DNA of 44,748 nucleotides from a virus. Position numbers and translations under genes: made by a program. The notes under the pieces were generated by a model, which was given only the letters and a program-made list of their open reading frames with translations, was not told the origin of the DNA and did no database searches. The stretch lies in UHGV virus genome UHGV-0124463; one strand, 5' to 3'. Positions 15,338 through 35,504 of this stretch are shown here, in pieces (position 1 is the stretch's first letter; each line of letters opens with the position of its first letter).

Positions 15338-15433
15338 GTAGCTCCCTGGGGTATCTCTATGGTATCCCGGGGCACTACTTGGGGTGCACGTCTATACCTG
15401 GACCTGAAATTTATTAGACTTTAAAATGAGGAT

Positions 15434-15895
15434 ATGTCTATGAACATCAAATATGACACAACATCCCCTAGCTGCTTGGTGTGGCTCAAGGGTAGGCGCG
15501 CCGGTGCTCCAGCGGGTACCCGCAACACTCGTGGCTACTGGGTGGTACAGGTATCTGGTAGAAAGATACAGGCACACCGCCTCATCTGGGAACTACACAA
15601 CGGGCCTATTCCAGACGGATATGTGGTGGACCACATCAACCAAAACCCCAGTGACAACCGCCTAGAGAACCTGCGCTTGGCTACTCTCAGTGAGAATAAC
15701 TGCAATGCTCGCAGGGCTGAGCGCGAACACCCTAGAGGCGTATACTACACTGGCACTTGCTGGCGCGGGGAGTTCTGGAAGGACGGTAAGCGTTATATGA
15801 AGAAGCACAGCTCCTACGAGGTTATCTGCAAGTGGGTACAAGAGAAACGTCAAGAGCAACACAAGGCCTTCACCCCGGGGCAGGTGTATATCTGA
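15434..15895 (+). CDS. HNH homing endonuclease with AP2-like DNA-binding domain
   Basis: Motif VVDHINQNPSDNRLENLRLATLSEN followed by GVYYTGTCWRGEFWKDGKRY. Confidence 0.75.
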   Translation: MSMNIKYDTTSPSCLVWLKGRRAGAPAGTRNTRGYWVVQVSGRKIQAHRLIWELHNGPIPDGYVVDHINQNPSDNRLENLRLATLSENNCNARRAEREHPRGVYYTGTCWRGEFWKDGKRYMKKHSSYEVICKWVQEKRQEQHKAFTPGQVYI

Positions 15896-16425
15896 AACCA
15901 AAAATTATTATACTCGCCCTTGGGCCTCCCTCACCCTCAGCGCGAGCAATTGCCCCCATAGGGGGTGCCTAGCGCATAAACAGAGGGGGTGGGGCCACCT
16001 AGGGCGCACTAGTAGGCACCAGCGGGCCTCAGCGGGCCTGTGCTGCGTTCTAGTGCTATCGCTAGTGCTACCCTATGGCTATCCCTGTGCGTTCACTAGG
16101 GCGCTTCCTGTGCGCTCTCTGTGGGCCATAGGGGTGCGCTCTGCCTTACCTATTTTGTGCGCCTCAGTGTGGCACCTAGGGGCGTGTCCATTGCTTATTT
16201 TGCGCGTCCATAGTGGGCCCGCCTAGTGCGCTGTAGTGCGTCACGGTGCTATCCCTAGTATGCACTAGGCGATCCACTGGCTATCCCTAGTGCTTTACAT
16301 TGTGCCGATTATATGCTACGCTGCGCGCTCCCCCCTAGGGCGCACATCCTCACCCAACACTATCCCGGCGCTATCTCTTTGCTATCCTTTTGCTCTTACT
16401 TTCATTCGAAAGCTGTCATGAAATG
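15896..16425. repeat. repeat-rich non-coding region (short direct repeats and recurring 10-mer CTAGGGCGCA); probable genome-terminus region
   Basis: No credible ORF; CTAGGGCGCA at 15999 and 16335 (9/10 at 16096; also 17330), tandem cagcgggcct x2, repeated ctagtgcta and ctatccct. Confidence 0.5.
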
Positions 16426-16442
16426 ATGTTACAGGAGTAGGA
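16426..16442 (+). promoter_or_regulatory. copy of 17-bp motif ATGTTACAGGAGTAGGA (candidate phage RNAP promoter)
   Basis: Exact match to copies at 4834..4851 and 37985..38002; in non-coding DNA. Confidence 0.4.
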
Positions 16443-16633
16443 GGGTTTTAGGGCACTATATACACACTACTTACTACTACTCACTAGTAGTCACTAGTAT
16501 CCCCTAGTAATGCCCTGTATGACTGACCGTAGGGAGGGAAGCATTACCTAGAATCTTGTAACCTCCGCTCCTATCCCTCCGGGATATCGTCGCTATGGTT
16601 ACGCTACTAATCACTATGTAAGGAGATATTGTT

Positions 16634-17020
16634 GTGGCTAGAACATTTAAGATTGTGGTTGATAAGGAAGGTTATCCAGTGATTAATGGTGCTGGGCCTG
16701 AGTATGTGAATAAGCGAGGTAAGAGAGACTATAAGACTGTGGCGCTGCATAGGGCCGTGGTTATGGATGCTCTGGGAATCACTAGCTACGGTTCTGGCTA
16801 TCACGTACATCACTGTGACAGTAACCGCCTTAACTGTGACTTCAATAACCTGATACTGGTTAGCGCTGACACTCACCGGGCCATACACTTAGCACAGATT
16901 CAGGAAGGGAGATGCTTCACAAAGGATGAGTTATTGGCTAGTCCTGAGTACGATACTAACTGGCGAGAGTTCTACGTGACTTATGGGGACTACAATAGTT
17001 TACTGCACGCAGACCTTTAG
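16634..17020 (+). CDS. HNH endonuclease
   Basis: GTG start after RBS TAAGGAGA; motif HVHHCDSNRLNCDFNNLILVSADTHRAIH. Confidence 0.6.
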   Translation: MARTFKIVVDKEGYPVINGAGPEYVNKRGKRDYKTVALHRAVVMDALGITSYGSGYHVHHCDSNRLNCDFNNLILVSADTHRAIHLAQIQEGRCFTKDELLASPEYDTNWREFYVTYGDYNSLLHADL

Positions 17021-17070
17021 GGGTCTGCTTACTCTTTTTGCTCCCAGTGATAAAAAGTTTAAAAAAGTAC

Positions 17071-17100
17071 TTGCTTCTTTTGGTTCAATAGGGCTATAGT
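17071..17100 (+). promoter_or_regulatory. sigma70-like promoter candidate (TTGCTT-N18-TATAGT) with A-rich upstream element
   Basis: Read directly; preceded by gataaaaagtttaaaaaag. Confidence 0.35.
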
Positions 17101-17202
17101 TCAATCACCGGGAGGCACTGAGGCGCTAACCGGGGCAGAGTCGGGAGATTCAGCCGGATTAAAGCTAGATAGTGTGAAGGGTTAGACACTCAATAAAAAG
17201 AG

Positions 17203-17231
17203 TTGACACCGCGAAGAACATAAGCTAGATT
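17203..17231 (+). promoter_or_regulatory. sigma70-like promoter candidate (TTGACA-N17-TAGATT)
   Basis: Consensus -35 hexamer and 17-bp spacer read directly. Confidence 0.45.
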
Positions 17232-17271
17232 GAATCCCGAAGTAAGCAGTAAGGCAGTAAGAAATAAACGC

Positions 17272-17300
17272 TTGACAAGTTCTGATTCACTGAGTAACTT
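17272..17300 (+). promoter_or_regulatory. sigma70-like promoter candidate (TTGACA-N17-TAACTT)
   Basis: Consensus -35 hexamer and 17-bp spacer read directly. Confidence 0.4.
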
Positions 17301-17650
17301 AGATAGCGAACAAGGCAAGGATAACCACTCTAGGGCGCAAGGATGTGTGTCCCGTCGGATTAGGCTAGACGTTAAAAATGACCTCTTAAAGGTTTAGTAG
17401 TAAGCTGGTTTGCGGGGAGGCCCAGTACCTTGACTGGTACGTTGACGACCCACCCCTAGACAATCAGTTAAAGAGTAAACGTGCCGGACGTTATCACCGG
17501 GGTTCTGAGGCAAACCATACTGCCGAGGCGAGAGCAGCTCGCTCCTCTGAATCGAGGGAACAAGGCGCGGAGTGTATCCCGCAAAGAGCATATAACATAG
17601 CGCAGCAGTAACAAGGTTGCGCTAGATTATGTTCTCTGAGAGGTAAGAGT

Positions 17651-17848
17651 ATGCGCAAATCAAAGCGTTTAGCATTACGGCGGAATATGCAATTATCACT
17701 GAATCCCACCGACGACGTGCCGCTTACTGTGAAGCCTAGCAAACAAGGGTTGAGCAGTGAGCACAGGGTGAGGGGAAAGCAAAAACAAAAGGGCAGTAGC
17801 AGGCAGCCATCTGGATGGCCTACTGTTAACTCCCAATTTGGTCGATAA
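17651..17848 (+). CDS. small basic hypothetical protein (first early ORF)
   Basis: 65 aa, Lys/Arg-rich, strong RBS GAGAGGTAAGAG before ATG. Confidence 0.4.
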   Translation: MRKSKRLALRRNMQLSLNPTDDVPLTVKPSKQGLSSEHRVRGKQKQKGSSRQPSGWPTVNSQFGR

Positions 17849-17919
17849 TTACAGCCTATAGCATCCTACGGGGTGCTATGTGAAGTAATTACCTAAACAA
17901 CCAATCAAAGAGGTGCATT

Positions 17920-18519
17920 ATGACCCATTCAACTGGTAAAGTATTCAAGCTCACCGCTGCGGGCAGCATTCGTAAAGCGCTGGGCGACGTAGTGGAAGCA
18001 AAGCGCAACATCACTATTAGCGCGCTCTTCCACGGCCTGATTAGCAGCAACGTTTCCTGGGCTATGGATATGCAGCGCAGCGATGCCGCGGACTTTGATA
18101 TGGTGCTGCGTACGCTGCTGCCAATCAAGTTCAACAAAGAGTCCGGCAAGTACGAATTCAACGCTAAGAAGTGCTATGCGTCGGCTGAAAAGCTGGGTAT
18201 CGAACTGGACAGTATGCGTCTGGATTACAAGCAAGCTGACAAGCAAGGCCGCGAAGTAATCGTAGCCAGCTTCTATAGCTCCTGTATGGCCCTGTACGCT
18301 GCCGAAGCGGAGCGGGTGAAGAATGACGCGCTGGATGCCGATGCAGTGCGCTTGCAAGCGCTGGGGCGCGTTAAAAACGCCATCAAGAAGGCTAAAGAGA
18401 CTGGTGTAAGCGATGCTGACCTCGTGTCTATGCTGGTATCGCAAGGCGTGGACGTACGCGCTGTACTGGACGCCGTGAATCTTGGCATTATCACCGATTG
18501 GAGACAACTCTATGGTTAA
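17920..18519 (+). CDS. hypothetical early protein
   Basis: 199-aa ORF with balanced composition, RBS-like AAAGAGG upstream. Confidence 0.5.
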   Translation: MTHSTGKVFKLTAAGSIRKALGDVVEAKRNITISALFHGLISSNVSWAMDMQRSDAADFDMVLRTLLPIKFNKESGKYEFNAKKCYASAEKLGIELDSMRLDYKQADKQGREVIVASFYSSCMALYAAEAERVKNDALDADAVRLQALGRVKNAIKKAKETGVSDADLVSMLVSQGVDVRAVLDAVNLGIITDWRQLYG

Positions 18520-18775
18520 CGTATTCAACATCATTGTGACCAGCGCTATGCTGGTGCTGGGCAACGACATAAACAACCCAATCCCATACTGCACTGTGCA
18601 GTTGCAGCAACCGGCAACGCAGGAGCCGCAGCCGCGCCCTGAGTATGACCTCTTTGAAGACCCCGAGGGTGGTTGCAAAGAGCTGGGCGCACGTATCCTT
18701 GCGGCGGTGCAGGGGCAGTACCCGGACGCTGCGGTAACGCTCACGGTGGATGGTAAGAGCAATAACGAAATTTGA
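18512..18775 (+). CDS. hypothetical early protein (acidic, N-terminal hydrophobic segment)
   Basis: ATG at 18512 overlapping upstream stop; track ORF 18482..18775. Confidence 0.4.
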   Translation: MVNVFNIIVTSAMLVLGNDINNPIPYCTVQLQQPATQEPQPRPEYDLFEDPEGGCKELGARILAAVQGQYPDAAVTLTVDGKSNNEI

Positions 18776-18784
18776 GGTGGGGGC

Positions 18785-18964
18785 ATGCACGGAAAGAATC
18801 CTGAAACGCTGCTGATGCGTAAGCAGCAACCAACAATCGACAGGCTGGCGCGGGAGTACAACGCGAAGGCAGCGCTGCGCCAGCACTATGAGAAACAAGC
18901 AAAGCGCCTGGGTATGACCCTGCGCGGCTACTGCTTCCGGTTTAATGTGCGGGGTGTAGTATGA
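18785..18964 (+). CDS. hypothetical small early protein (59 aa)
   Basis: ATG preceded by GAGGTGGGGG; stop overlaps next ATG (ATGA); below the ORF-track length cutoff. Confidence 0.3.
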   Translation: MHGKNPETLLMRKQQPTIDRLAREYNAKAALRQHYEKQAKRLGMTLRGYCFRFNVRGVV

Positions 18965-19179
18965 GCAAGCAGGACATTTATGACGTATATAAGCGCCCTA
19001 ATGGGTTTCTTTACCGGGTACCTCTATGTAGTCCACTGCACGCCCTCGCAGAATTCTATGCAGAGGAGACTAGACTGTGGTTGCCGTCCAGTCACACAGT
19101 TGGCGGGGTGGTAATGCTAAGTTGTAGCACCCTTGTGGCCCGCAACGTGGTATTCAAGGATAGCGCATGCTCACAGTAG
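18961..19179 (+). CDS. hypothetical early protein
   Basis: 72-aa ORF in tight tandem with neighbours. Confidence 0.4.
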   Translation: MSKQDIYDVYKRPNGFLYRVPLCSPLHALAEFYAEETRLWLPSSHTVGGVVMLSCSTLVARNVVFKDSACSQ

Positions 19180-19511
19180 ACGAAACAGCGCTGCTGTGCT
19201 GGCGTCTGCTGGAAACGCAGGGCAAGTGCGGTTGCACTTGGGAAACATTCAAAGAGGTTCCTAATGAACTCAAGCAAATCGTGCCAGTTGAGCGTCGATT
19301 ACTCCGAGTTAGAAAAGAGGATATTGGCACTGTTCTCACAACCTATCGAGAGTACACTGAGTCTGCCGCGCGGAAGCTGCAAGAGCACATTGCATTCGAT
19401 GTGGTTGCAGCACTACGGCGGAATGGATACCGCGGAGCTTTTAAGCAATTTAGAGCCGCAGTCCGCGCCTATTATAAGCAGCAACAACTCTCCGCGTGGT
19501 ACGCACGCTGA
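19167..19511 (+). CDS. hypothetical early protein
   Basis: 114-aa ORF with protein-like balanced composition; overlaps upstream stop by 13 nt. Confidence 0.4.
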   Translation: MLTVDETALLCWRLLETQGKCGCTWETFKEVPNELKQIVPVERRLLRVRKEDIGTVLTTYREYTESAARKLQEHIAFDVVAALRRNGYRGAFKQFRAAVRAYYKQQQLSAWYAR

Positions 19512-19542
19512 ACTCTTAGTGCATGACGAAGTTCTATTAACT

Positions 19543-21234
19543 CGGGAGCAAATGAAAATGCAAGAAACTAACACAGCACCTATCGAATGGAAAGTAGTGT
19601 TACCGGAAGGTGCAAACGCACTGCCGATTAAAGAATCAATGTATTCCAGCGGTGATTACTGGACCCCGTTCCAGGACTTGCAAATGCAAGGGGAGGACCA
19701 TCCCCACACTGAGGGTCCGCTGCAGGTGCTTATGGGTCTCCGCACTGTCAGTGCGCACACTCCAGGCTTAGAGGTGACTATAGGCGGGGCACTGCACCCA
19801 GAGTATCGCGAATCAACGATGACGCTCGGCCCGTTGCAAAAGGTGGACCTGTACCGGTCCGGAACTTTCTGCGAACTCTTTGAACCGGTGCGAATCACCA
19901 TAGACAGCAAGTTCTGGGAACGCCGCCGCGACTTCTATGAGGGCGAGGATGTAGTGGTTGAGCGCGTAGTTGCTTGCGTCGAAGAATTCACAGGTTACAA
20001 GGTGCACAAGCAGGCCGTGCAGTTATTTGAGCGCATCATGCTTGCACCAGAAGAGCAGCAGCGCCGCTTATACACTGGCTACGATTACGGCCGCCACACC
20101 CGCGATGGCAACTTAGCTGCGCTGCTCATGAAGTTGCACGGCTTCGTAGTGTCTAGATTCGCCGTGCCTTTGGGCTTTGGTTTCCGCAACGGCGAACCTA
20201 TCGTGATGCTGGGGCAGCCGCGGATGCACAAGGACTTCGCAGCAGTTACTGAGTACCGCTGCGTAGAGATGCGCGTAGGTAAGTGGCTCGCTAACTACTA
20301 CGGAAATGGTGTGGACTTCCGCGATGCTATCGAAGACCTCAAGGCTATGAACGTAGACCCTACAACGTACCTGTGCAAGACCGAGCAGGAATGGTACGAC
20401 GCCTACGAGAATGGCCCGGGTAGCTGCATGAGCGGGTACTCATTTGAGCATAGCTCTGTGCGGACGTACGCTACCACCAGCCACGGGTTGCCGGATAATG
20501 GGCTGCGCCTGTTCATCCAGTACACCGGGGAGCTGTTCGGCGACGATTTCGAAGTGCAGGCACGGGCAATCGTTAACACAGAAACTAACGAGTACGTCCG
20601 CGCTTACGGCAACGCTGCGGATGCAATCCTGCGGGGGCATGGGTACACCAAAAACATTGAATGTCTCGAAGGGGTAATGCTGGCGCGAATACCGCACCCA
20701 ACATACAACGGCGCAGTGCTGATGCCATACCTAGATAGCAGCCAGTGCGGCGTAGATGAGTATGGGGATGATGCCTTTGTAATCCGTGATGCTTATGAGT
20801 ACGAGGCACAAGACTCAGAAGGATACATCTACGTAGGCACTGAGTCTGCTCGGTGCTGCTGCTGTGAATGTCGCCACTCTGTAGATGACATGCAGGAGAC
20901 CGCAGATGGTGATATGGTCTGCGACGGCTGCGTAGAAGAAGGGGATTTTGTGTACGTAGTTGGGCGTGATGGTCTGCATAATCGCTGGAGCTGCACCTGG
21001 TCTGATTACCACGACGCCTATGTATACGACGAGGACATAGAGCGCTGCGAAGTAGAGGGTGTAGTGCACGACCAAGAGGAACTGGTGTTTGCACAGGACC
21101 GGCAAGTGCTTATTGAGCACGCAGAAGAACACCCAGTGCACGGGTTAATTCTCACTGAGCATGCAGCTGATTGCTTGGGAGAGAAGTACCTGGGCAACGA
21201 TGAAGATGAAGAAGAAGCAGAGGAGGCAGCTTAA
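19543..21234 (+). CDS. large acidic early protein with cysteine cluster, unknown function
   Basis: Start chosen at ATG 19543 (RBS GGGAG); the track ORF extends to 19264 but that extension is Ser/Pro-rich and overlaps 19167..19511; CCCCECRH...CDGC cluster; acidic tail DEDEEEAEEAA. Confidence 0.5.
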   Translation, partial: REQMKMQETNTAPIEWKVVLPEGANALPIKESMYSSGDYWTPFQDLQMQGEDHPHTEGPLQVLMGLRTVSAHTPGLEVTIGGALHPEYRESTMTLGPLQKVDLYRSGTFCELFEPVRITIDSKFWERRRDFYEGEDVVVERVVACVEEFTGYKVHKQAVQLFERIMLAPEEQQRRLYTGYDYGRHTRDGNLAALLMKLHGFVVSRFAVPLGFGFRNGEPIVMLGQPRMHKDFAAVTEYRCVEMRVGKWLANYYGNGVDFRDAIEDLKAMNVDPTTYLCKTEQEWYDAYENGPGSCMSGYSFEHSSVRTYATTSHGLPDNGLRLFIQYTGELFGDDFEVQARAIVNTETNEYVRAYGNAADAILRGHGYTKNIECLEGVMLARIPHPTYNGAVLMPYLDSSQCGVDEYGDDAFVIRDAYEYEAQDSEGYIYVGTESARCCCCECRHSVDDMQETADGDMVCDGCVEEGDFVYVVGRDGLHNRWSCTWSDYHDAYVYDEDIERCEVEGVVHDQEELVFAQDRQVLIEHAEEHPVHGLILTEHAADCLGEKYLGNDEDEEEAEEAA

Positions 21235-22289: not shown

Positions 22290-22738
22290 TTATGTCTAAA
22301 CTTTTTCAAGTGGGTGATAAGGTTCAGCGCATCAATAAGATTGAAGGTAAGACCATGCGCGGCGAGATAGTCACTAAGGGGCCTGGCCTCTGTATAGACA
22401 TCAAGCTAACCGAAGGAGCAGGGATTCGTTATGCCGGGGATATCTATGGCGGCTCTGCCGACTTCTGGCAGCTAATCGAGGAGGCGGACGAGCTGCCACC
22501 GGTTCCGTCTAGTGTAGCATATTTAAACACTAAACGAGACCCAGGAAACGACCAGCGGCTGGTATTAGAAAAGGACAGCGAGACTAACGAAGGACTACTA
22601 TACATCGGAATAGTGCCTAGAAAAGGCAGCACCCGGGCAGAGCGAGAGATTGGTATTAATATGAGCCCCGATTCAGCCCTGCAGTTGGCACATGACATTC
22701 GTCGAATGGCTATGAAAGTTAAGCGAGAGATTCAGTAA
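22286..22738 (+). CDS. hypothetical protein
   Basis: 150-aa ORF overlapping neighbours by 4 nt and 1 nt. Confidence 0.45.
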   Translation: MIMSKLFQVGDKVQRINKIEGKTMRGEIVTKGPGLCIDIKLTEGAGIRYAGDIYGGSADFWQLIEEADELPPVPSSVAYLNTKRDPGNDQRLVLEKDSETNEGLLYIGIVPRKGSTRAEREIGINMSPDSALQLAHDIRRMAMKVKREIQ

Positions 22739-25228: not shown

Positions 25229-25280
25229 CTTCCCTAGCGCCTTCTATGAGGGCGCTATGTAGGTACAATAGGAGGCTACT

Positions 25281-25436: not shown

Positions 25437-25882
25437 CAGGTTGTATTGACCACGGACAGAAGGGAAGCACTTGCCGAGGAAAGGGCGCTGGGTATGGCCG
25501 CTCCAGATTTGACGGGAAGACAACTGGCAGCCACCGCAAAGCATACTGTGTAGCTCACAACTTGAAGCTGAGCGATATCGCGGGACTTGTAGTCCGGCAT
25601 TCGTGCGACAATCCTCGGTGCATAAATCCGGAGCACCTGCTACTAGGGACTTCTAGCGATAATATGCAGGACCGAAATAAAGGTGCGCGTAATTTGCTGG
25701 GCAGCCGCAACCCTGCTGCCAGACTTACCCCAGAAGACGTGCACAGCATACGAGAAGCATACGCTGGCGGTGAGACCCAGGTATCTATAGCGAGACGCTT
25801 CGGGACAAGTCAAGGATACATATCTAATATCATAAAGGGGAGGGTATGGAATGAGCAGAAGCATCCTGATAACGGATTATGA
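25433..25882 (+). CDS. HNH homing endonuclease (paralog 2 of 3)
   Basis: Motif LVVRHSCDNPRCINPEHLLLGTSSDNMQD; track ORF 25427..25882, ATG at 25433 after GGAGGG. Confidence 0.7.
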   Translation: MTGCIDHGQKGSTCRGKGAGYGRSRFDGKTTGSHRKAYCVAHNLKLSDIAGLVVRHSCDNPRCINPEHLLLGTSSDNMQDRNKGARNLLGSRNPAARLTPEDVHSIREAYAGGETQVSIARRFGTSQGYISNIIKGRVWNEQKHPDNGL

Positions 25883-28229
25883 GACGCAAAACCACCCATA
25901 TTACGGTAGTGTTGCTTCCCCGTACTGTCCGGATAATTACATCGTAGAATCAGCGTGGCGTATTGACCGCACGCACGATGACGGTACGGTAGAAGTAGGC
26001 CCCGTAGAGAGTGTACGGTATAACAGTCGCGCGCACTTTGAAGCGGCACCTGTATCAGAATGGCTCCCAATACCAGCTGACTGTTGGCTGATTGTGGCTC
26101 ACAACGCCGCATATGAGATTAGCTGGTTCCTAACCTTTGCGCGCGCCGAGTTTGAGGCCTTCCTAAAGCGGGGAGGTCGCGTATTCTGTACGATGCATTC
26201 TGAGTACATCGCCTCGGACTTTCAGAGCATGTATCCGTCGCTGGACGAGACGGCTCCTAAGTACGGTGGTACGCACAAAGTAGACGGGGTTAAGATTCTA
26301 TGGGAGCAGGGTGTGTTAACCTCCCAGATTGACCCGATGCTGCTGCATGACTACCTGGTTAACGGGGACATCCCGAACACGGCTCTGTGCTTCTACGGTC
26401 AGTGCGCTACGTTCGCCCAGCGCAATCAGATGCAGTACGTGTGGGAGCGCATGGATGCTCTGCTAGCCTGGGCGTACTGCGAATGGTTCGGCCTGTTCGT
26501 TAATATGCCAATTGCGCGCAAGAACCAAGAGGAGCAGGAGCAGCGCATCCGCGAGATTAAGCAGGAGCTGCAGCAGTACATCCCTAAGGACTTGCCGGAG
26601 GCACTGGATTTCAACTTCGGTTCGGACTTTCATATGTCTGCACTGGTGTACGGTGGGCCTATCAAGTACCGCAAGAAGGTGCCCTATGACCCTCCTCAGT
26701 ACGTCAAGTACGATGCCTACTTAGCAGACGTCAATGGAACGTTGCAGTATATTGATGTGTCCGACTGGCAGCCAGAATGGACGTACCCGCGGACACTGTA
26801 TAAGTCCGGCAAGAACAAGGGGCTTCCCAAAGTGTTCCGCCTTGATACCGAGGAGGAGAAACTTAAGTGGGAGGATGACCTTTACTTCTGCCCGGGCCTA
26901 GTGAACATCCAGGAGCTGCCGGAAGTTATCCGGGAGAAGTACACAGAGCGCGGAGAGTTCCGGCAGGCGCGGAACCTGCAGGATGACACTCCTGTGTATA
27001 GTACCAGCACTGACGCAATGGAGGCACTGGCTCGCCAAGGTTTCGAGTTCTGTAAGTTGGTGAACGAGCTGGCGGCGCTGGAGAAGGACACTGGAACTTA
27101 CTACTTGCGTGAAGTTCTGGACGCAGAGGGTAAAGTCAAAGAGCGGAAGGGCATGTTACAGTACGTAATCCCTGAGCGTCCTGATGGTTCTGGCATCATA
27201 CACCACCGACTGAATACCTGCGCCACCGTAACCGGGCGCTTGAGTAGCTCTAACCCGAACCTGCAGAACCTACCCCGCCCGGATGAGGATGGGGATGGGG
27301 TAGCTAAATCCAAGGTGAAGCAGGTATTCACCAGCCGATTCGGGGATAACGGACGCATCACTGAGGTTGACTACTCGGCGCTGGAAGTGGTTATGTCCTG
27401 CGTGCATACGGGGGACACCAAACTACTGGGGCTGCTGCAGGGCGGCACGGATATGCACTGTTACCGCCTAGCTTTCCGCGAGGAACTGCCGTATGAAGAA
27501 GTGTATGAGCGCTGCCACAACAAGAAGCACGAGCTGCATCCGCTTTGGAAGGCAATGCGTACAGGTATTAAGGCTCCTAGCTTCGCAGCCCAGTATGGCG
27601 CTACGGCTAAGGGGATTGCGTTTGCTACTGGATGTACGGTGGAATTCGCACAGGCTTTCTTGGACAACGAGGCTGCGCTGTTCCCGCAAACAATTGGCTT
27701 CCGCGCTGTTATCAAGGAAGAAGTAGAGCGCACCGGGGCAGCCGGGCGCATGTACCGCGAGCAGGCTGACGATGGCAGCTACCGAGTCTACCGCATCGGG
27801 ACGTGGACTAGCCCAGCAGGTGCCCGCTATAGCTTCCGCCAGAAGGAGCAGTGGAAAGAGGTTGTGCCTGGGCAGCGTAAGCAGAAGGTAATGGACTACA
27901 AGGAAACAGAGATGGCTAACTACTGGTGCCAGGGGGAAGCATTCTTCCTGATGGCGGTAGCCGCCGGTATGGTTCTGCGTGCACTCCTGGCCCGTGACTG
28001 GTTCGACAATCAGGTGTGCCTGATTACGAACGTGCACGATGCGTTGTATCTGGACAGCGCCAACCCGGAGGTTGGACGTGAGGCGAGCCTGCTGGTTAAG
28101 CAGTGCATGGAGGATGCACCTAAGCGTATTCACCAGCTCTGGCCTAACTACGGCATCATTGGTGAGGTCCCGTTCCCGGCGGAATGTGAGATGGGGGTAA
28201 GCATGTATGCCAAAGAGAAAATTGAGTGA
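25851..28229 (+). CDS. DNA polymerase, family A, with 3'-5' exonuclease domain
   Basis: Exo motif ITDYET; pol motifs DYSALEVV, RTGIKAPSFAAQYG, NVHDALYLD; 792 aa. Confidence 0.85.
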   Translation: MSRSILITDYETQNHPYYGSVASPYCPDNYIVESAWRIDRTHDDGTVEVGPVESVRYNSRAHFEAAPVSEWLPIPADCWLIVAHNAAYEISWFLTFARAEFEAFLKRGGRVFCTMHSEYIASDFQSMYPSLDETAPKYGGTHKVDGVKILWEQGVLTSQIDPMLLHDYLVNGDIPNTALCFYGQCATFAQRNQMQYVWERMDALLAWAYCEWFGLFVNMPIARKNQEEQEQRIREIKQELQQYIPKDLPEALDFNFGSDFHMSALVYGGPIKYRKKVPYDPPQYVKYDAYLADVNGTLQYIDVSDWQPEWTYPRTLYKSGKNKGLPKVFRLDTEEEKLKWEDDLYFCPGLVNIQELPEVIREKYTERGEFRQARNLQDDTPVYSTSTDAMEALARQGFEFCKLVNELAALEKDTGTYYLREVLDAEGKVKERKGMLQYVIPERPDGSGIIHHRLNTCATVTGRLSSSNPNLQNLPRPDEDGDGVAKSKVKQVFTSRFGDNGRITEVDYSALEVVMSCVHTGDTKLLGLLQGGTDMHCYRLAFREELPYEEVYERCHNKKHELHPLWKAMRTGIKAPSFAAQYGATAKGIAFATGCTVEFAQAFLDNEAALFPQTIGFRAVIKEEVERTGAAGRMYREQADDGSYRVYRIGTWTSPAGARYSFRQKEQWKEVVPGQRKQKVMDYKETEMANYWCQGEAFFLMAVAAGMVLRALLARDWFDNQVCLITNVHDALYLDSANPEVGREASLLVKQCMEDAPKRIHQLWPNYGIIGEVPFPAECEMGVSMYAKEKIE

Positions 28230-28686
28230 GTGTATTAATCATCCCGGAGGTATGTTCCCTTCTGGGTACGGTGCTAAATGGTGGCTAGGAGCCACCAGAA
28301 AGGCCCACCGGGTGGCGTATTGCCAGGCGCACGGTCTGCTGCCGGAGGATATAGAGGGTATCATAATCCGACACAAGTGCGACAATAGGGCATGCGTAAA
28401 CCCAGACCACCTGGAGCCGGGAAGCCATGCCGACAATATGCGGGACATGGTTGAGCGAGGACGCTCGGCGATGGGCGTTCGTAACAGCAAGGCCAAACTA
28501 ACGCCTGAGCAAGTAGCCGAAATACGCCGAACGTTTGTACCCCAATCCACGGAGTACGGCTCAGTGGCTCTAGGCCGGTTGTATGGGGTGAGTAACAGCA
28601 CAATCAACCGCATAGTGCGTGGACTCTATTGGGTAGCAGAGGCTGAGATGGGTACGAGTATGTACAGTAAGGAGAAGGTAGAATGA
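28207..28686 (+). CDS. HNH homing endonuclease (paralog 3 of 3), ending in a polymerase-tail-like peptide
   Basis: Motif IIIRHKCDNRACVNPDHLEPGSHADNMRD; last 16 aa AEAEMGTSMYSKEKVE mirror the polymerase C-terminus AECEMGVSMYAKEKIE. Confidence 0.7.
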   Translation: MPKRKLSECINHPGGMFPSGYGAKWWLGATRKAHRVAYCQAHGLLPEDIEGIIIRHKCDNRACVNPDHLEPGSHADNMRDMVERGRSAMGVRNSKAKLTPEQVAEIRRTFVPQSTEYGSVALGRLYGVSNSTINRIVRGLYWVAEAEMGTSMYSKEKVE

Positions 28687-28904
28687 GTATAAAGTCTGGC
28701 AGTGTTGTGGAGTTGATGGACCTGGGGCCTGAGCCGATAGACCCGCGGTATGCAGCATACTTCACCCCGGGTACGAGGCACACGGTTATGTTCTTCGACC
28801 CGGTTACTGGGGAGATAGAACTAAGTTATCCTGGACTAGTAGTAAGTAGACCGGGGGATGGTGTTACCTTCTTCCCGGGGGAGTACAAGCTTATCGTGGA
28901 ATAG
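28683..28904 (+). CDS. hypothetical protein
   Basis: 73-aa ORF with strong RBS AAGGAGAAGG. Confidence 0.4.
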   Translation: MSIKSGSVVELMDLGPEPIDPRYAAYFTPGTRHTVMFFDPVTGEIELSYPGLVVSRPGDGVTFFPGEYKLIVE

Positions 28905-28961
28905 TGATAGGTGGACCCTTGGGTGGTGTAGGGGGTTAGGGTAGCATGGAAATACACTAGG

Positions 28962-28996
28962 GTCAACTAAATAATTAAATAAAATTATTTGTTGAC
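28962..28996. promoter_or_regulatory. AT-rich imperfect palindrome (GTCAAC-T-AAATAATT-aaataa-AATTATTT-GTTGAC); candidate operator or origin element
   Basis: Inverted repeat read directly; lies in a ~160-bp non-coding AT-rich gap. Confidence 0.35.
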
Positions 28997-29065
28997 TCTG
29001 GCTTGATTCTGTGATTCCCAGCAAATTAATGTGATACGAGTAGGAACAACACAAGAGAGGCAACC

Positions 29066-30109: not shown

Positions 30110-30131
30110 TACAGGAAAGAGATTCCGCGGT

Positions 30132-30635
30132 ATGGTTGTTTATACCTGGGACTGCCCTTACTGTGGCGAGGAGTTTGAGGCGATACGCACTAAGCTATTC
30201 AATACCAGTAAGCGCGGCGGCCTTGGTCACTGCGGATGTCAAACTAAACTCAGGCAAAGTGAGAAGAATACTGGACGAACTCCGCCTAATAAGCTGGACG
30301 ACTTAACAGTATCGGCGAATAAGGTATGGGCCTTTAGCACTAAGTTAGGTAGGAGTATTACTAAGGAAGACGCCAAGGCCTTAGTAAGCGCAGATTGTTA
30401 TTACTGCGGCGCGCCACCCAGTACCTACCGGGAACTCGGCAGTGGGAGATGGGCGCGTAAATCCACGGTACCCACTAACGGGATAGACCGGAAGGATTCA
30501 CGCATTGGGTACCATTTAGACAACTGTGTGCCATGCTGCCCTACCTGCAACTATATGAAGTCTGACATGCACCACGATGACTTCGTAGGACTGTGCAAAC
30601 GCATAGCCCTGCATCTGCACGTAAATATCATTTAA
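30132..30635 (+). CDS. zinc-ribbon protein with HNH-like nuclease motif
   Basis: CPYCGEEF...HCGC and NGIDRKDSRIGYHLDNCVPCCPTCNYMKSD; track ORF starts at 30063 and overlaps upstream gene, ATG 30132 has RBS AGGAAAGAG. Confidence 0.5.
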   Translation: MVVYTWDCPYCGEEFEAIRTKLFNTSKRGGLGHCGCQTKLRQSEKNTGRTPPNKLDDLTVSANKVWAFSTKLGRSITKEDAKALVSADCYYCGAPPSTYRELGSGRWARKSTVPTNGIDRKDSRIGYHLDNCVPCCPTCNYMKSDMHHDDFVGLCKRIALHLHVNII

Positions 30636-30656
30636 ACTAAACGAGGACGTAATTAT

Positions 30657-31490
30657 ATGACTACGAATGTATTGGCATCCCTGAACGCTCTGGTAGACGC
30701 AGCAATCGAAACCCAAGATGTAGATATGCGGGAAACCGCACAGGGCGGTGCGTATGAGGACGTGCTGCTGCCGAAGGGTGAGTACTACGGCTACTTCACC
30801 GAGTACGTGGAAATCGGTAAGCGCCTGCCAACTAAGGGCGGTAAGCCTACCGGTAAGCCTGCGGTGGCTAACGTACGAATCGGCATTGTAGTGTTCGGCC
30901 CTAACGGTGAGGTGAAGCGTATTCGCCCGTTCCCGATGGCTATCAGTAACTTTGAGCGCGCAGGTTTCAAGAAGTTCTTCGACAAGCTCAACTACGATAA
31001 CAGCATTAAGCATGCGGCACAGCGTCTGGGCCAGGCCTTCACCTTCCCGATTGATGAACACACCAGCGCCGCGGGCAAGAAGTCCAACATCGTGGACCTG
31101 TCCGGTATCCGCCCGATTCCTAAGTTCGACCCGAACACCGGCGAGCCTATCAAAATGCCTGCCCTGGACGCCTCCGAGATTAAGCTGTTCCTGTGGAACA
31201 ACCCAACCAAAGAGACCTGGGATAGCCTGCACATCGAAGGCACCTTCGACGACGGTAAGAGCAAGAACTGGATTCAGGAGGATATGTACAAGGCCGTAGA
31301 CTTCCCGGGCAGTGCTCTGGACATTCTGCTGAACGCTGGCTCGGTCCCGAGTCCGGCGGCTATGCAGGCACCAGCGGCACCGGCTGCTCCTGCGACCCCA
31401 GCTGCTCCGGTAGCCCCGGCTGCACCAGCAGCCCCTGTGGCTCCTGTGGCTCCTGTGGCGCCAACAGCACCTGCTGCACCACAAGCCTAA
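30657..31490 (+). CDS. hypothetical protein with Pro/Ala-rich low-complexity C-terminus (possible ssDNA-binding protein by position)
   Basis: 277 aa; C-terminal ~45 aa of PAAPA/PVAPA repeats. Confidence 0.45.
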   Translation: MTTNVLASLNALVDAAIETQDVDMRETAQGGAYEDVLLPKGEYYGYFTEYVEIGKRLPTKGGKPTGKPAVANVRIGIVVFGPNGEVKRIRPFPMAISNFERAGFKKFFDKLNYDNSIKHAAQRLGQAFTFPIDEHTSAAGKKSNIVDLSGIRPIPKFDPNTGEPIKMPALDASEIKLFLWNNPTKETWDSLHIEGTFDDGKSKNWIQEDMYKAVDFPGSALDILLNAGSVPSPAAMQAPAAPAAPATPAAPVAPAAPAAPVAPVAPVAPTAPAAPQA

Positions 31491-31781
31491 TTGGACATTG
31501 TTGGAGGGAACATGAAAGCTGTACGCTTGACTGTGAGTCTGTATGACATTGATGAACACGCTCAGAAATTTATGAGTCGGTTGGGGGTAGAGTACGGTTT
31601 GGCAGTCCCACAGAGTATTGCTGACTGTTGGCAATTTTATATGTGCGACTATGACCCGAATACGCTGCCGGGTTTCGTGGATGTAAGAAACGATATAGAC
31701 CCTATGCGGTTGGTGGGTTATGGTTTGAGTCAGGGGAATGCCATAAATATTGTCAAGTGGATGGAAGAAAATAATTTATAG
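31491..31781 (+). CDS. hypothetical protein
   Basis: 96-aa ORF; start may be the internal ATG after GGAGGGA. Confidence 0.35.
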   Translation: MDIVGGNMKAVRLTVSLYDIDEHAQKFMSRLGVEYGLAVPQSIADCWQFYMCDYDPNTLPGFVDVRNDIDPMRLVGYGLSQGNAINIVKWMEENNL

Positions 31782-31865
31782 GCAACTGCGTAAACCTCGT
31801 GCCACAAGCCTAATCAACCCTAACATAAACTAATACGGCCCCTCAGAGGGCCTTAGAGGAAGCTT

Positions 31866-32144
31866 ATGAACATCATCACATGGGTCAAAGAACAGTACGC
31901 TGTGTTTCTGCTTCTGCGTGCACAGCGTTTGCAGAAGCGAGCGAATGACTGGCACTGGGCGGCTAACTCTCACGCACACAGGGTGAGCCTCATGGGCAAC
32001 GAGATTAGTGCACACCGCTATCACCTGACTCGCCAGTGCGCCAAGTCCCGCCGCCGTGCATACGCCCTGGGCGCAGAGGCTACGGCCACTGAGACCAAAG
32101 CCCACAATTTCATTTCAAAACACAAACTGAAAGGATTTGACTAA
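31866..32144 (+). CDS. hypothetical protein
   Basis: 92-aa basic ORF with RBS AGAGGAAG. Confidence 0.4.
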   Translation: MNIITWVKEQYAVFLLLRAQRLQKRANDWHWAANSHAHRVSLMGNEISAHRYHLTRQCAKSRRRAYALGAEATATETKAHNFISKHKLKGFD

Positions 32145-32515
32145 TGGACAAAGTACTAGACGTATACAAGAAACTGGTTCTGGCTGTAGGTTACGTGAAC
32201 TGTAGCGCCGTTCAAGGTTTCGACAATGGTGACCAGCTCGGCGCTGTGTACGATGCTCTGGACAAGCTGGCGGCCCTGTACGGCATGGACCTGGAGTTGG
32301 CCGCTACCGCCTTCAAGGAGCACAACGACCTGGCGGCACATGCCGATAAGCTACGTGGCGACGACCTCGTGCTTATCCGTGTAGTGGGTACGCTAAGCAT
32401 CGGGCTGGCGGAGATTGGTTCCTGCATCTACGACGTAGACCAGAGCCTGCGTACTCCGGAAGTAATCGGGGACATGCTCGGCACCGTGCTGGTGCTATCT
32501 GAGCTGGAGGCTTGA
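32144..32515 (+). CDS. hypothetical protein
   Basis: 123-aa acidic ORF, ATGA-type overlap with neighbours. Confidence 0.45.
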   Translation: MDKVLDVYKKLVLAVGYVNCSAVQGFDNGDQLGAVYDALDKLAALYGMDLELAATAFKEHNDLAAHADKLRGDDLVLIRVVGTLSIGLAEIGSCIYDVDQSLRTPEVIGDMLGTVLVLSELEA

Positions 32516-32715
32516 GCATGGGCGTACGTGTAGAGGTGCACGCACCTAGGCACAGCTTTATGGCACCTTATGCTGAGCATGCCTGCAACCGCTGGTACGT
32601 AACCTTTATCCGGGAGGACGACCCTTGCACCATGTACGTGGTGCGCTGGGCCGCTAAACCTACCCGTAAGCAGGTGAAATCAGCTACTAAATCAGTAGCT
32701 AGACTGGAGATTTAA
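32512..32715 (+). CDS. hypothetical protein
   Basis: 67-aa ORF. Confidence 0.35.
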   Translation: MSMGVRVEVHAPRHSFMAPYAEHACNRWYVTFIREDDPCTMYVVRWAAKPTRKQVKSATKSVARLEI

Positions 32716-32717
32716 TA

Positions 32718-32879
32718 ATGCGAAATACCCTTGCCAGAGTATTTTATTTTATGCTAGTGGCCCCTCTAGTACCGGTAGCCATCTTGTGCTGGGTGTTTGA
32801 GAAGGTAGAGAACAGCAAGGCGCTGACCGCCTGGGAATCCTGGGCGCGTAAGTTGACCAAGAAGGTTACGGGGGTCTGA
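32718..32879 (+). CDS. small membrane protein candidate (53 aa)
   Basis: Hydrophobic helix FYFMLVAPLVPVAILCWVF; stop overlaps next ATG; below the ORF-track length cutoff. Confidence 0.3.
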   Translation: MRNTLARVFYFMLVAPLVPVAILCWVFEKVENSKALTAWESWARKLTKKVTGV

Positions 32880-33847
32880 TGATTATCAACGGGGTTGACT
32901 TGTCCCAGCTCGGGGAGCAGTTAGCTCCGCAGAACTCTGGGAAGATTCTGTTGTACGATGCGGATTTCACAGTTTATAAATCTGCCGCTACAGTGAAACG
33001 TTTGGATACCGCGATACGCCGCTTCTATCAGCTGGTGCTTGAGGACATGTTCCTGGTCGGCTGCTCAGAAGCAGTGGCGTATCTTACACCGACTGGGTGC
33101 GCTAAGTGCCTGCGCTGGCACTTGCCCACCGCTAAGCCCTACCAGGGGCAGCGGGCTAATCGGCAGGAGCTTCCGCTGAAAGCGCCTTTGAAGCGGCACC
33201 TGATTGAGAACCCGGACCAGTATTCTGAGCAGGGGATACAGGTGGTTAGCAGCAACTTCTTCGAGGCGGACGACATGTTCATCATGGACTCATACGCCTT
33301 CGGGGACCGTGGCATCCTAATGTCCCAGGATAAAGATTCCTGGCTCAGCCCTATGGCTCGGTTCGATATCCCGACCGGAACCGTGTGGCCTGCCTTGGAT
33401 AACCCCTTCGGCTGGATTAAGTGGGATGATACCCAGGCTATGCCGGTACGAGCGCACGGCTTAAAGTTCTTCTGGTGGCAGATGCTAGCAGGGGATGACG
33501 CAGACAACGTCAAAGGCATCACATTGCTTGATGGGAAGCTCTGTGGGAAGAGAACGGCCTTTGATGCTATCAACCCTATTACCTCAGAGCAGGACGCCGC
33601 AGAATTCGTTGTGGCGGCTTACGCTCGAAACAACCAAGATGTACTCGCAGAGGCAGAATGCCTGTTCCTGCGGCGCTCCCCGTCAGATTCAGCGTACCTG
33701 TATCTGATGTCACTGTTGACTACTCCCAGTCTACGTGACTGGGTGCATTCGCTGCACGAGTACCATAAACAGCACATACAGTGGATACAGGAGCACCCAG
33801 ACAATGGCGAAGATGACTGCAAAGGAAATGAGCCTGCGGGCGATTGA
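32879..33847 (+). CDS. 5'-3' exonuclease (T7 gp6-like, FEN family)
   Basis: N-terminal GKILLYDADFTVYKSAA resembles T7 gp6 GILVMDGDWLVFQAMSAA; acidic clusters; 322 aa. Confidence 0.6.
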   Translation: MIINGVDLSQLGEQLAPQNSGKILLYDADFTVYKSAATVKRLDTAIRRFYQLVLEDMFLVGCSEAVAYLTPTGCAKCLRWHLPTAKPYQGQRANRQELPLKAPLKRHLIENPDQYSEQGIQVVSSNFFEADDMFIMDSYAFGDRGILMSQDKDSWLSPMARFDIPTGTVWPALDNPFGWIKWDDTQAMPVRAHGLKFFWWQMLAGDDADNVKGITLLDGKLCGKRTAFDAINPITSEQDAAEFVVAAYARNNQDVLAEAECLFLRRSPSDSAYLYLMSLLTTPSLRDWVHSLHEYHKQHIQWIQEHPDNGEDDCKGNEPAGD

Positions 33848-34004
33848 GTTATACTACGAGGGGAAACACGATGAACTTGAAACTATTCTGGATGCGCTGC
33901 GTGAACGAGCACCCAAAACACATCGAAGAACGGTTGAGCATTTGGATTCTCTCATTCACGACAATGCTATGCTGGATGTAGTAGGGGAGATTCAGGTATG
34001 GTAG
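33804..34004 (+). CDS. hypothetical small protein
   Basis: Track ORF 33735..34004; trimmed to ATG 33804 because the upstream part overlaps the exonuclease gene; start uncertain. Confidence 0.3.
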   Translation: MAKMTAKEMSLRAIELYYEGKHDELETILDALRERAPKTHRRTVEHLDSLIHDNAMLDVVGEIQVW

Positions 34005-34420
34005 CGCGCCGTATAACACGGGGACAGGTCAGGGCCGTAACATTGAAACTGCTAAAAGAGCAGGATGGGTTGTGCTTAATCTGCGGTAAGCCCATAGAGT
34101 TAACGGCTAAAAGCACTTCCGGGGACGGTCCGGCACTTGACCATTCACACCGTACTGGGCGCATTCGCGGGGTGCTGCACCGCTCATGTAACGGGGGTAT
34201 TGGCCGAGCAGAGTCTGTGATAGGTCGGTGGGTTACAGGGTCCATGCAGGATGAGGTTGCTATTGTAGATGACATGCAGCGAATGGTAGACTATCTGCGC
34301 AAGCCTGAGACTGACTTGATTTATTATACACACAAATCCCCAGAAGAATTGGCGCAGGCACAGAAGCTCAAGGCCCGCAAAGCCAGAGCACGACGCAAAG
34401 CACGGGAGACTATTAAATGA
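33998..34420 (+). CDS. endonuclease VII-like Holliday junction resolvase
   Basis: CLICGKP...LDHSHRTGRIRGVLHRSCNGGIG matches the T4 endonuclease VII zinc/His-Cys motif pattern. Confidence 0.65.
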   Translation: MVARRITRGQVRAVTLKLLKEQDGLCLICGKPIELTAKSTSGDGPALDHSHRTGRIRGVLHRSCNGGIGRAESVIGRWVTGSMQDEVAIVDDMQRMVDYLRKPETDLIYYTHKSPEELAQAQKLKARKARARRKARETIK

Positions 34421-34875
34421 GTAAGTTCAAAGTTGGTGATGTAGTGGTACGTAAGCCCGAGTACCGCAATGAGAACTGGCGCAATCGGTTTAAAGAGCTT
34501 CCAGAAGGTGCCCCGCACGTGGTGGCTGCTGTCCGTTATAATGATATTATTGAGTTGGATCATTTACCTTGTGGTTGGGACTCAGACTTATTTGATTTGG
34601 TAAGTGCCCCCGGCATACCGGAAGAGCTGCCCGCACCGAAAGCGTCCGACGCAGTGAACTCCCCTAAGCACTACCAGTTCTTCCCGGACCTGGAGGCAAT
34701 CGAGGTGATTGCACGCAGTATGACCAAGGAACAATTCTATGGCTATTGTCTCGGGAACAGATTAAAATATAGGCTGCGCGCTGGGAACAAGGATAAGCTG
34801 GAGCAGGACATTGCTAAGTCTGATAAATACTTGGAGTTGTATGAGCAGCACAATGGAAAATGTATTGACGCCTAG
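34417..34875 (+). CDS. hypothetical protein
   Basis: 152-aa ORF, ATGA-type overlap with upstream gene. Confidence 0.45.
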   Translation: MSKFKVGDVVVRKPEYRNENWRNRFKELPEGAPHVVAAVRYNDIIELDHLPCGWDSDLFDLVSAPGIPEELPAPKASDAVNSPKHYQFFPDLEAIEVIARSMTKEQFYGYCLGNRLKYRLRAGNKDKLEQDIAKSDKYLELYEQHNGKCIDA

Positions 34876-35006
34876 CGCGTGGTGTCACGGGATGTGGCAG
34901 AAAGCAGTAGAGCGGGGCGATGCTACCGCCGCTAAAGACTACCTGGAGATGTACAATCTCTGGGTTAGCAGGAGCCTATAAGGACATAACCGAGGAGATT
35001 ACATTG

Positions 35007-35504
35007 ATGCCAAGTAAGCAGTCTCTATCAGAAGCTTTTAAGTATGACCCTTTAACTGGAACGTTAACTCGACGTGTAAAAAGAGGCAGTTCTAAACTAG
35101 ATGCTGCTAGAGAGCTTACTAATTCAGGATACCTTCGGACATGGTTCAAAGGGAAGCGATACTTTACACATCGATTAGTATACATCATGCATTGCGGAGA
35201 AATCCCAGATGGCATGGAAGTGGACCACATTAACCAGCTTCGTACTGATAATCGAATAGAGAATTTACGGTTGGCGAGCAGGGCGGATAACAGCAGAAAC
35301 CGCACTCGACACAGTAATAATATTAGCGGAACTACTGGGGTACATTGGTCTAAAGATAAAGGGAAGTGGCGCGCCGGGATTAGGGTTAACGGCGAGTATA
35401 AAAGCCTCGGATGCTTCACCGACTTAGAGGACGCAGTAGCTGCTCGTAAGGCGGCAGAAAATACATACGGATTCCACGAGAACCACGGTAGCGCAAAGAG
35501 ATAA
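35007..35504 (+). CDS. HNH homing endonuclease with AP2-like domain (paralog of 15434..15895)
   Basis: EVDHINQLRTDNRIENLRLASRADN plus GVHWSKDKGKWRAGIRVNGEY; ATG 35007 after GAGGAG (track ORF starts 34920). Confidence 0.7.
   Translation: MPSKQSLSEAFKYDPLTGTLTRRVKRGSSKLDAARELTNSGYLRTWFKGKRYFTHRLVYIMHCGEIPDGMEVDHINQLRTDNRIENLRLASRADNSRNRTRHSNNISGTTGVHWSKDKGKWRAGIRVNGEYKSLGCFTDLEDAVAARKAAENTYGFHENHGSAKR

Follow-up and report, generated by a model that had tools for sequence, protein, structure and literature searches.

We analysed the 44,748-nt virus genome UHGV-0124463, the whole of which is referred to here as the window, and found seven HNH-type nuclease genes, which are best read as free-standing His-Me-finger (HNH) homing-endonuclease cassettes that would spread between phages by intronless homing. 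On sequence comparison we put the probability of this reading at about 0.8. The window has the same gene order as KpV41 (Drulisvirus, Slopekvirinae, Autographiviridae) and AttikonH2, and a 23-kb region around the nuclease genes matched 281 phage records, 234 of them Klebsiella, at ~90% identity, with no more than 78% of its length covered. Gene order and database matches together identify the window as a circularly permuted genome of a KP34-like Klebsiella podovirus (a K1-specific Drulisvirus), and no record in the phage database was identical to it.

All plausible genes of the window are on the + strand, as are the seven nuclease open reading frames (ORFs), each of which has a Shine-Dalgarno-like motif upstream; their combined length is 3,219 nt, 7.2% of the genome (Table 1). 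When 121 ORFs were scanned (+ strand, at least 50 aa; − strand, at least 110 aa), we found exactly six members of Pfam HNH_3 (PF13392) and one Endonuclease_7. The six passed the HNH_3 gathering cutoff of 24.8 bits with scores of 30.3–78.5 bits and matched PHROG HNH families at 1e-13 to 1e-67. The ORF at 30132 was not among them; it was recognized by a family profile and a structure model, both of which matched PacI. A sequence-only reading of the window had listed the same seven genes as HNH-type, and the profiles and the model confirmed the HNH folds. NCBIfam gave no useful match for any of the eight nucleases, the Endonuclease_7 protein included. The invariant columns of the A family (D73, H74, N86 and N98) and of the C family (C9, H34, H56, C58, N60, C63, N65 and H68) are present in the window copies; judged from these alignments, the catalytic His/Asn residues and zinc ligands of the HNH_3 proteins are intact, and DNA cleavage by them is putative. 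The seven genes belong to four lineages, namely A1 and A2, B, C1 to C3, and one PacI-like HNH. An Rfam scan of the whole window at gathering thresholds returned no family, group I introns included, indicating that the elements are free-standing. With the DNA polymerase, primase and RNA polymerase ORFs uninterrupted as well, an intron-encoded context was ruled out.

Distribution and linked gene-end alleles

The distribution of the genes was examined by Megablast of each one against 50,697 phage records, with full-length matches counted and the ~235 records that match the adjacent primase segment taken as the denominator. Each of the seven genes was absent from 88–99% of close relatives, KpV41 carried none of them, and the combination of all seven was not found in any database record. 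Empty sites could be mapped within a few bases and the breakpoints against non-carriers were sharp. The placement at replication-gene boundaries proposed in the sequence-only reading is exact. No copy was syntenically conserved across the group. The best database copies of C1, C2 and A2 were 98–99% identical to the window genes, against ~90% for the genomes as a whole, and linked flanking alleles were found for C1, C2, C3 and A2. Sporadic carriers, near-identical copies and linked gene-end alleles together support the repeated homing events that had been suggested.

C1, C2 and C3 have in common an HNH with a zinc loop, the RHxCDNxxCxNPxHL motif and a C-terminal helix-turn-helix. They had been described as three closely related genes; that they form one family held, and that they are closely related did not, as their amino-acid identity is only 38–42%. 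Recent duplication within the genome was rejected on account of this low identity and of closer orthologues found at each gene's own site elsewhere.

HNH-C1 overlaps the primase stop codon by 20 nt, ends 1 nt before the helicase ORF, and is at most 98.8% identical in its full-length database carriers. Relative to AttikonH4 it replaces only ~16–17 nt, and relative to other genomes it replaces a small ORF. Over the last 300 nt of primase, the sampled C1 carriers L003 and L005 were 97–100% identical to the window, whereas non-carriers were 64–87% identical. In the last 90 amino acids L003 was 100% identical and L005 had one difference, whereas non-carriers differed at ~35–40% of residues. Database-wide, this primase allele was found only beside an intact C1 (12 records) or a C1 remnant (five PWKp phages). 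The remnant in the five PWKp phages has a ~292-nt internal deletion, with the linked primase allele kept at 99% (PWKp1, 1780–1900), and in cp48 (34814–35328) C1 is broken into two ORFs.

HNH-C2 sits downstream of helicase, and its last 32 nt overlap the start of the DNA polymerase gene that follows; 31 of its 32 matching records were at least 95% identical. Sliding-window comparison of the window with five full genomes showed that tracts of 96–100% identity reach 300–400 nt into the primase and DNA polymerase genes in carriers only. The first 300–400 nt of DNA polymerase were 96–100% identical to the window in C2 carriers, whereas non-carriers among the five genomes gave no blastn alignment over 25500–26000. 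At the protein level the first 105 amino acids were 100% identical in C2 carriers and ~60% identical in non-carriers, and the divergence between carriers and non-carriers was confined to these residues of DNA polymerase and the last 90 of primase. We then searched the database with a composite query, half HNH-C2 and half DNA polymerase allele. Thirty records matched and 26 of them held both parts together; the other four were Kpn BHU1 and BHU2, which stop before the allele, one match starting at the record start, and one deletion derivative that keeps most of HNH-C2. The DNA polymerase allele was found beside an empty C2 site in 0 of the 30 matching records. In Klebsiella phage SRD2021 (1500–1720), a ~217-nt deletion removes the 3′ end of C2 and the first ~50 DNA polymerase codons, DxE motif included, and the annotated polymerase coding sequence begins inside the HNH remnant. 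This deletion may be either an assembly error or a natural HNH–polymerase fusion.

We also asked how the number of HNH genes compares across the genus, using 15 full relatives and the window. Two phmmer rounds were run on the ORFs with the six HNH_3 proteins of the window as seeds, leaving out of the counts short remnants and the spurious matches that an extended tail-tube ORF gave. The relatives had 0, 1, 2, 3, 3, 3, 3, 3, 4, 4, 4, 5, 6, 6 and 7 HNH_3 genes, against 6 in the window, distributed over about 15 sites in the 16 genomes. T7 has about three predicted HNH genes. The high density noted in the sequence-only reading is thus real in comparison with T7 and overstated within the genus (0–7 in 16 genomes), where six or seven HNH_3 genes are in the upper part of the range and no outlier. 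Four slots (helicase/DNA polymerase, primase/helicase, exonuclease/endonuclease VII and peptidase/primase) were occupied by different HNHs in different phages, each only 33–43% identical to the window copies.

Table 1. Nuclease genes of the window and the flanking features linked to them (positions in the window; carriers are full-length database matches)
Feature	Position	Strand	Carriers	Description
Native copy of 38-nt HNH-A1 flank	15383..15420	+		blastn breakpoints overlap by ~38 nt in relatives L001 and L002
HNH-A1	15434..15895	+	27	I-HmuI-like HNH_3 with divergent AP2-like C-terminus; Pfam HNH_3 2.9e-22, 78.5 bits; PHROG_99 2.5e-46
Diverged second 38-nt flank copy	15877..15914	+		covers last 19 nt of the HNH-A1 ORF
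HNH-B	16634..17020	+	16	short divergent HNH_3; Pfam 1.5e-7, 31.4 bits; PHROG_7545 2.2e-13
Primase 3′-end allele linked to HNH-C1	23200..23529	+		from carrier versus non-carrier identity
HNH-C1	23510..23947	+	12	Pfam HNH_3 5.9e-8, 32.7 bits; weak zf-His_Me_endon and helix-turn-helix; PHROG_6254 4e-29
HNH-C2	25433..25882	+	27	Pfam HNH_3 3.3e-7, 30.3 bits; Sigma70_r4-like helix-turn-helix 4.7e-4
DNA polymerase 5′ allele linked to HNH-C2	25851..26170	+		~first 105 codons, DxE exonuclease motif included
Recoded last 22 codons of DNA polymerase	28164..28229	+		ends in AECEMGVSMYAKEKIE and stop; also holds HNH-C3 ribosome-binding site and start codon
HNH-C3	28207..28686	+	2	Pfam HNH_3 4.8e-11, 42.6 bits; 51 nt (stop included) before native DNA polymerase end
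Displaced native DNA polymerase tail	28636..28686	+		AEAEMGTSMYSKEKVE and stop; read in frame as HNH-C3 C-terminus
PacI-like HNH nuclease	30132..30635	+	8	N-terminal CxxC zinc ribbon; PHROG_1035 1.5e-26 (labelled 'endonuclease VII')
Core endonuclease VII (junction resolvase)	33998..34420	+		Pfam Endonuclease_7 (PF02945) 5.8e-13; not one of the mobile genes
HNH-A2	35007..35504	+	5	I-HmuI-like HNH_3 with predicted AP2-type C-terminal domain; Pfam HNH_3 6.5e-19, 67.7 bits
Replaced RNA polymerase 5′ end	35517..35558	+		MLTYVQNPE... in place of MISALNTVVVPE...; linked to HNH-A2

The C3 cassette inside the DNA polymerase gene

Unlike in non-carriers, where DNA polymerase ends in the native PFPAEAEMGTSMYSKEKVE, the polymerase of the window ends in PFPAECEMGVSMYAKEKIE, and HNH-C3 begins within this altered end. 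Compared with non-carriers, the recoded tail had 17–21 of 66 nt changed (26–32%) and only 4 of 22 residues, while the 300 nt before it had 2–4% nucleotide difference and no amino-acid change. The recoded stretch also contains, in another frame, the start codon of HNH-C3 and a ribosome-binding motif, GGGGG. Family alignment showed that the HNH-C3 domain ends at ...GLYW, where other C-family members stop, and that a 16-aa extension lies beyond. The displaced native tail that is read here differed from non-carrier DNA polymerase 3′ ends at 0–4 of 51 nt, and its stop codon still overlaps the downstream gene start (ATGA).

When the database was queried with C3, 67 records matched the tail part only (the last 52 nt, an annotated DNA polymerase end), and the carriers were two database records (RCIP0106 and pKP-M186-2.2) and two IMG/VR contigs. 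Searching IMG/VR for the exact sequence pattern of the fusion junction gave no match; the two contigs were found by a protein-guided scan and have single-base differences at the junctions. The recoded tail and the fused-tail arrangement were the same in all five carriers, window included, and the C3 genes of RCIP0106 and pKP-M186-2.2 had 84–86% nucleotide identity to the window copy.

C3 brings a recoded copy of the last 16–22 DNA polymerase codons, by which the polymerase is made full-length again, and its ORF then runs on through the displaced native tail to the native stop codon. We infer that the C3 target spans the insertion point, so that both tail copies would be immune; the predicted target at the native DNA polymerase 3′ end is GGTGAGGTTCCATTCCCA/GCAGAGGCTGAGATGGG. 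The C-terminus of T7 DNA polymerase is functionally important. The recoding probably preserves the polymerase C-terminus and probably prevents deletion between direct repeats, and C3 illustrates one way for such an element to lodge within an essential ORF with neither intron nor intein. We propose tentatively, at odds somewhat below even, that the cassette at 28164–28686 represents a general and previously undescribed route for phage homing endonucleases into essential ORFs without intron or intein, in which a recoded terminus keeps the host protein full-length, destroys the target, avoids repeat-mediated deletion and holds the ribosome-binding site and start codon of the nuclease in another frame, and the nuclease is fused to the native terminus. 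The 38-nt duplication at A1, the replaced RNA polymerase N-terminus at A2 and an HNH gene at the capsid/tail-tube junction of relatives may be variants of this strategy. In a bolder and speculative version, the captured 16-residue polymerase tail may be functional in the C3 nuclease.

The junction gene just mentioned was seen in relatives L013 (26482–27012) and L014 (26796–27335), between capsid and tail-tube A. It resembles an upstream extension of the tail-tube ORF of non-carriers (~1e-11), which hints at a further insertion with a duplicated or fused host terminus.

Mitochondrial homing-endonuclease insertions, for example in Allomyces atp6, duplicate the 3′ end of the host gene, and in Aeromonas phage Aeh1 mobE splits nrdA. 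C3 resembles these in that a coding sequence is invaded, a replacement gene end is brought and the original end is left downstream. It differs from Allomyces atp6 in that the displaced end is, as predicted from the reading frame, read as the endonuclease C-terminus and the stop/start overlap with the next gene is kept, and from Aeh1 mobE in that the host gene still encodes a single polypeptide. Searches of the literature returned no description of terminus-duplicating homing-endonuclease insertions in phages, which makes the gene-internal insertion with a recoded and captured tail the one feature for which we found no phage precedent, and one of modest extra interest.

Proposed mechanism and alternative explanations

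The proposed homing cycle would begin in a mixed infection, when the nuclease would cut a cassette-free relative at or near the empty site, within or beside one end of the primase, DNA polymerase or RNA polymerase gene, all of them essential. Repair off the carrier genome would copy the cassette and, along with it, a few hundred bases of flank, and the carrier itself would be protected, its target destroyed by the insertion and by the heavily substituted linked allele. The linked flanks, near-identical copies and decayed copies described above fit the classical signature of homing with co-conversion, in which invasion, fixation and decay are all visible.

Several points weigh against this reading. 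Cleavage, target sites and preferential inheritance are deduced from comparing genomes, and linked divergent flanks could arise by ordinary mosaic recombination of HNH-containing blocks. The 15 relatives were partly picked from carrier lists and are not a random sample. The Megablast counts are lower bounds that miss orthologues below ~80% identity. Finally, the spread of A1, B, C3 and the PacI-like gene is not demonstrably recent, because these are only 80–95% identical to their database counterparts.

We considered it unlikely that the HNH genes are inert passengers of modular recombination without drive, or serve mainly to attack competing phages or the DNA of the host (marker exclusion, defence). 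Drulisvirus genomes are strongly mosaic away from HNHs too, as 22300–22700, 27100–27700, 31500–31800 and 34000–34300 are divergent or absent in the sampled relatives, and phage HNHs are documented agents of marker exclusion (PMC12724721). Against passive exchange, however, the divergence at the cassettes is concentrated exactly at the junctions, and the linkage of HNH and allele is essentially complete across ~30 records. The change in the DNA polymerase tail is moreover largely synonymous, which argues for selection on the DNA as a target and not for neutral block exchange. The weapon version is only partly a rival, since exclusion and homing are two outcomes of one cleavage.

Least probable, and very improbable in our view, is that the genes are domesticated functions (as nickases in replication or recombination, in packaging or the processing of terminal repeats, or as transcription regulators acting by their AP2 or helix-turn-helix modules) placed by partnership with the replication genes: their tight packing and their overlaps with primase, helicase or DNA polymerase starts or stops suggest co-expression, A1 is directly beside the terminal repeat, all have DNA-binding modules, and in some cos phages terminase-adjacent HNH proteins are needed for packaging, but the phages that lack each gene, and KpV41 that lacks all, are viable isolates, decayed copies are tolerated, and unrelated HNHs fill the same slots in different phages. 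A terminase-associated packaging role was rejected specifically, as no HNH is conserved across the group or adjoins the terminase genes (9415–11573), the nearest being 3.9 kb away.

The mosaic block at 27100–27700 is inside the DNA polymerase gene and is only 59–73% identical to some relatives, with flanks above 90% and no adjacent HNH in the window. A 96-aa ORF at 31491–31781 had no Pfam or PHROG match and was found in only one of the 15 sampled relatives (OU509534, 94%).

The other nuclease genes and known systems

HNH-A2 is immediately upstream of the RNA polymerase gene, of which about the first nine codons are replaced in HNH-A2 carriers. Homology to non-carriers restarts only at 35559, and AttikonH4, an HNH-A2 carrier, has the same RNA polymerase N-terminus as the window. 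HNH-A1 is flanked by the K1-lyase tailspike gene on one side and the right terminal repeat on the other; its 27 database carriers have it at the same site, and the 15 sampled relatives lack it. In relatives free of HNH-A1, a 38-nt sequence directly abuts the terminal repeat; in the window this sequence is present on both sides of the gene, the two copies being 27/38 identical by local alignment. A repeat search of the window missed these flanking duplications, which are only ~70% identical, and they were revealed by overlapping blastn breakpoints together with local alignment. The physical genome ends are near 15.9–16.1 kb of the window. The adjacent tailspike (13382–15337) has all three K1 capsule-specific lyase domains, from which Klebsiella of capsule type K1 is the predicted target of the phage.

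A1 and A2 are 49% identical, in the HNH core only. A profile of 18 members (A1, A2 and 16 homologues from the sampled relatives) matched I-HmuI in its N-terminal part at 2.5e-10, and its positions 96–159 matched the plant AP2/ERF structures WRI1, TEM1, ERF096 and AtERF1 (7e-8 to 1.6e-4). As a single sequence, HNH-A2 matched the I-HmuI structure (PDB 1U3E) at 3e-4. Single-sequence searches with Pfam AP2 (PF00847) gave an insignificant E=0.37 for A2 (11.6 bits against a 33.3-bit cutoff) and no match for A1. A2 agrees well with the AP2 family consensus, and A1 is without the LGxF element. The claim of two AP2-domain HNH genes was borne out in part: judged from these alignments, the predicted AP2 domain is good for A2 at the family-profile level and weak for A1.

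HNH-B is an early-region gene a short way in from the left end. It had been called a divergent HNH, and it is indeed a short, separate HNH_3 protein. Around it, 474 nt (16551–17024) stand in place of 137 nt of AttikonH2. A GC-rich hairpin followed by a T-run (17009–17028) straddles the HNH-B stop codon (17018–17020) and coincides with the point where homology to non-carriers restarts (17025), and may act as a terminator at the edge of the cassette. Upstream of HNH-B, at 16474–16507, there are three 14-nt CTAGTAGTCACTAG-like units with 10-nt spacing, and two looser copies lie further on.

The PacI-like gene lies between the metallophosphoesterase and SSB-like genes, where ~522 nt of the window stand in place of 17 nt of AttikonH4, and it replaces a small ORF in other genomes. 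Its ORF had no significant Pfam or NCBIfam match (PF01844, E=0.15), and a homologue search returned 195 proteins, nearly all without Pfam domains. In a 49-sequence family C89, C92, G117-I-D-R120 (D119, R120), Y127, N131, C135, C136, C139, N140 and K143 were invariant, and the profile of these 49 homologues matched the HNH restriction enzyme PacI (3LDY) in the Protein Data Bank (PDB) at E=6.3e-8. An AlphaFold model (mean predicted local distance difference test score, pLDDT, 89.9) had 3ldy_A as its sole significant Foldseek match (E=3e-5, probability 1.00), with a template modelling (TM) score of only 0.38–0.43, as the match covers the core and not the whole protein; the weaker matches were other HNH nucleases. 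The profile and the model indicate that the protein is a PacI-like HNH fold with an N-terminal zinc ribbon, in agreement with the 'zinc-ribbon HNH-like' label first given to it. Identity with T4 endonuclease VII, as annotated in relatives and in PHROG, was rejected, because there was no PF02945 match up to E=10 and the closest structure was PacI. PacI and the 30132 protein have in common the motif G(I/V)DRxDSxxGY...N...C..CNxxKS and also the cysteines that bind zinc. Unlike PacI, the latter has an extra N-terminal zinc ribbon and helical region, and its gene is without a methyltransferase partner and is a sporadic insertion in a lytic phage.

The true endonuclease VII is encoded at 33998–34420, a position at which five of five annotated relatives have a gene so annotated; it is an eighth His-Me-finger nuclease that the sequence-only reading left out. 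The 5′ three-quarters of this gene (33998–34320) are a rare allele with no blastn match in 13 of the 15 sampled relatives. The allele has 92.6% identity in phage 128-44573 and 78% in cmc20191, where its immediate upstream neighbour is an HNH gene; a homing endonuclease since lost may have left it behind as an immune allele.

Among solved structures, I-HmuI of Bacillus phage SPO1 (PDB 1U3E) is the best relative of the A family; the C family matched it weakly (E=0.007). Like the window proteins, I-HmuI combines an N-terminal HNH with C-terminal DNA-binding modules. It differs in lying inside a group I intron, whereas no intron was detectable in the window, and in that the predicted modules of the window proteins are AP2-type (A1 and A2) or sigma-70-region-4-like helix-turn-helix (C1 to C3). 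The T4-type enzymes mobE, SegB, SegF and SegG are intergenic, beside essential genes, variably present, and spread with co-conversion of flanks (PMC2790892, PMC2988022, PMC2330249). The mechanism proposed for the window genes is the same as that of these free-standing enzymes; for T4, however, cleavage and biased inheritance were shown experimentally, whereas here they are deduced from sequence comparison, and the Seg proteins are of the GIY-YIG family whereas the window genes are HNH.

Related elements are already known close to the window. KP34, the type Drulisvirus, has two HNH genes, one of them directly upstream of the DNA polymerase gene (PMC3082699); piVLC phages differ by homing endonucleases (PMC7013548), and variable homing endonucleases were noted in Drulisvirus and PhiM1-like relatives (PMC7013548, PMC6115819). 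In Skunavirus, 89 genomes hold 212 I-HmuI-like HNH genes that group by insertion site, and marker exclusion was shown (PMC12724721). Compared with KP34, piVLC, the PhiM1-like CB5 and Skunavirus, the window has more such genes (six HNH_3 and one PacI-like), in a combination unique among database records. It is well supported that the finding belongs to a well-known type of element, already familiar in Drulisvirus-like phages, and the current understanding of homing endonucleases is unchanged by these results.

Klebsiella phage therapy makes wide use of Drulisvirus phages as candidates, often with several of them in one cocktail. If the nucleases are active, they would cause directional gene conversion between cocktail phages and exclusion of competitors' markers, so it would be useful to know which cassettes and immune alleles each phage carries. 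With ~15 sites and several competing lineages per site, Drulisvirus is a compact natural system for the homing cycle, and C3 provides a clean example of a selfish element inside an essential gene that stays functional.

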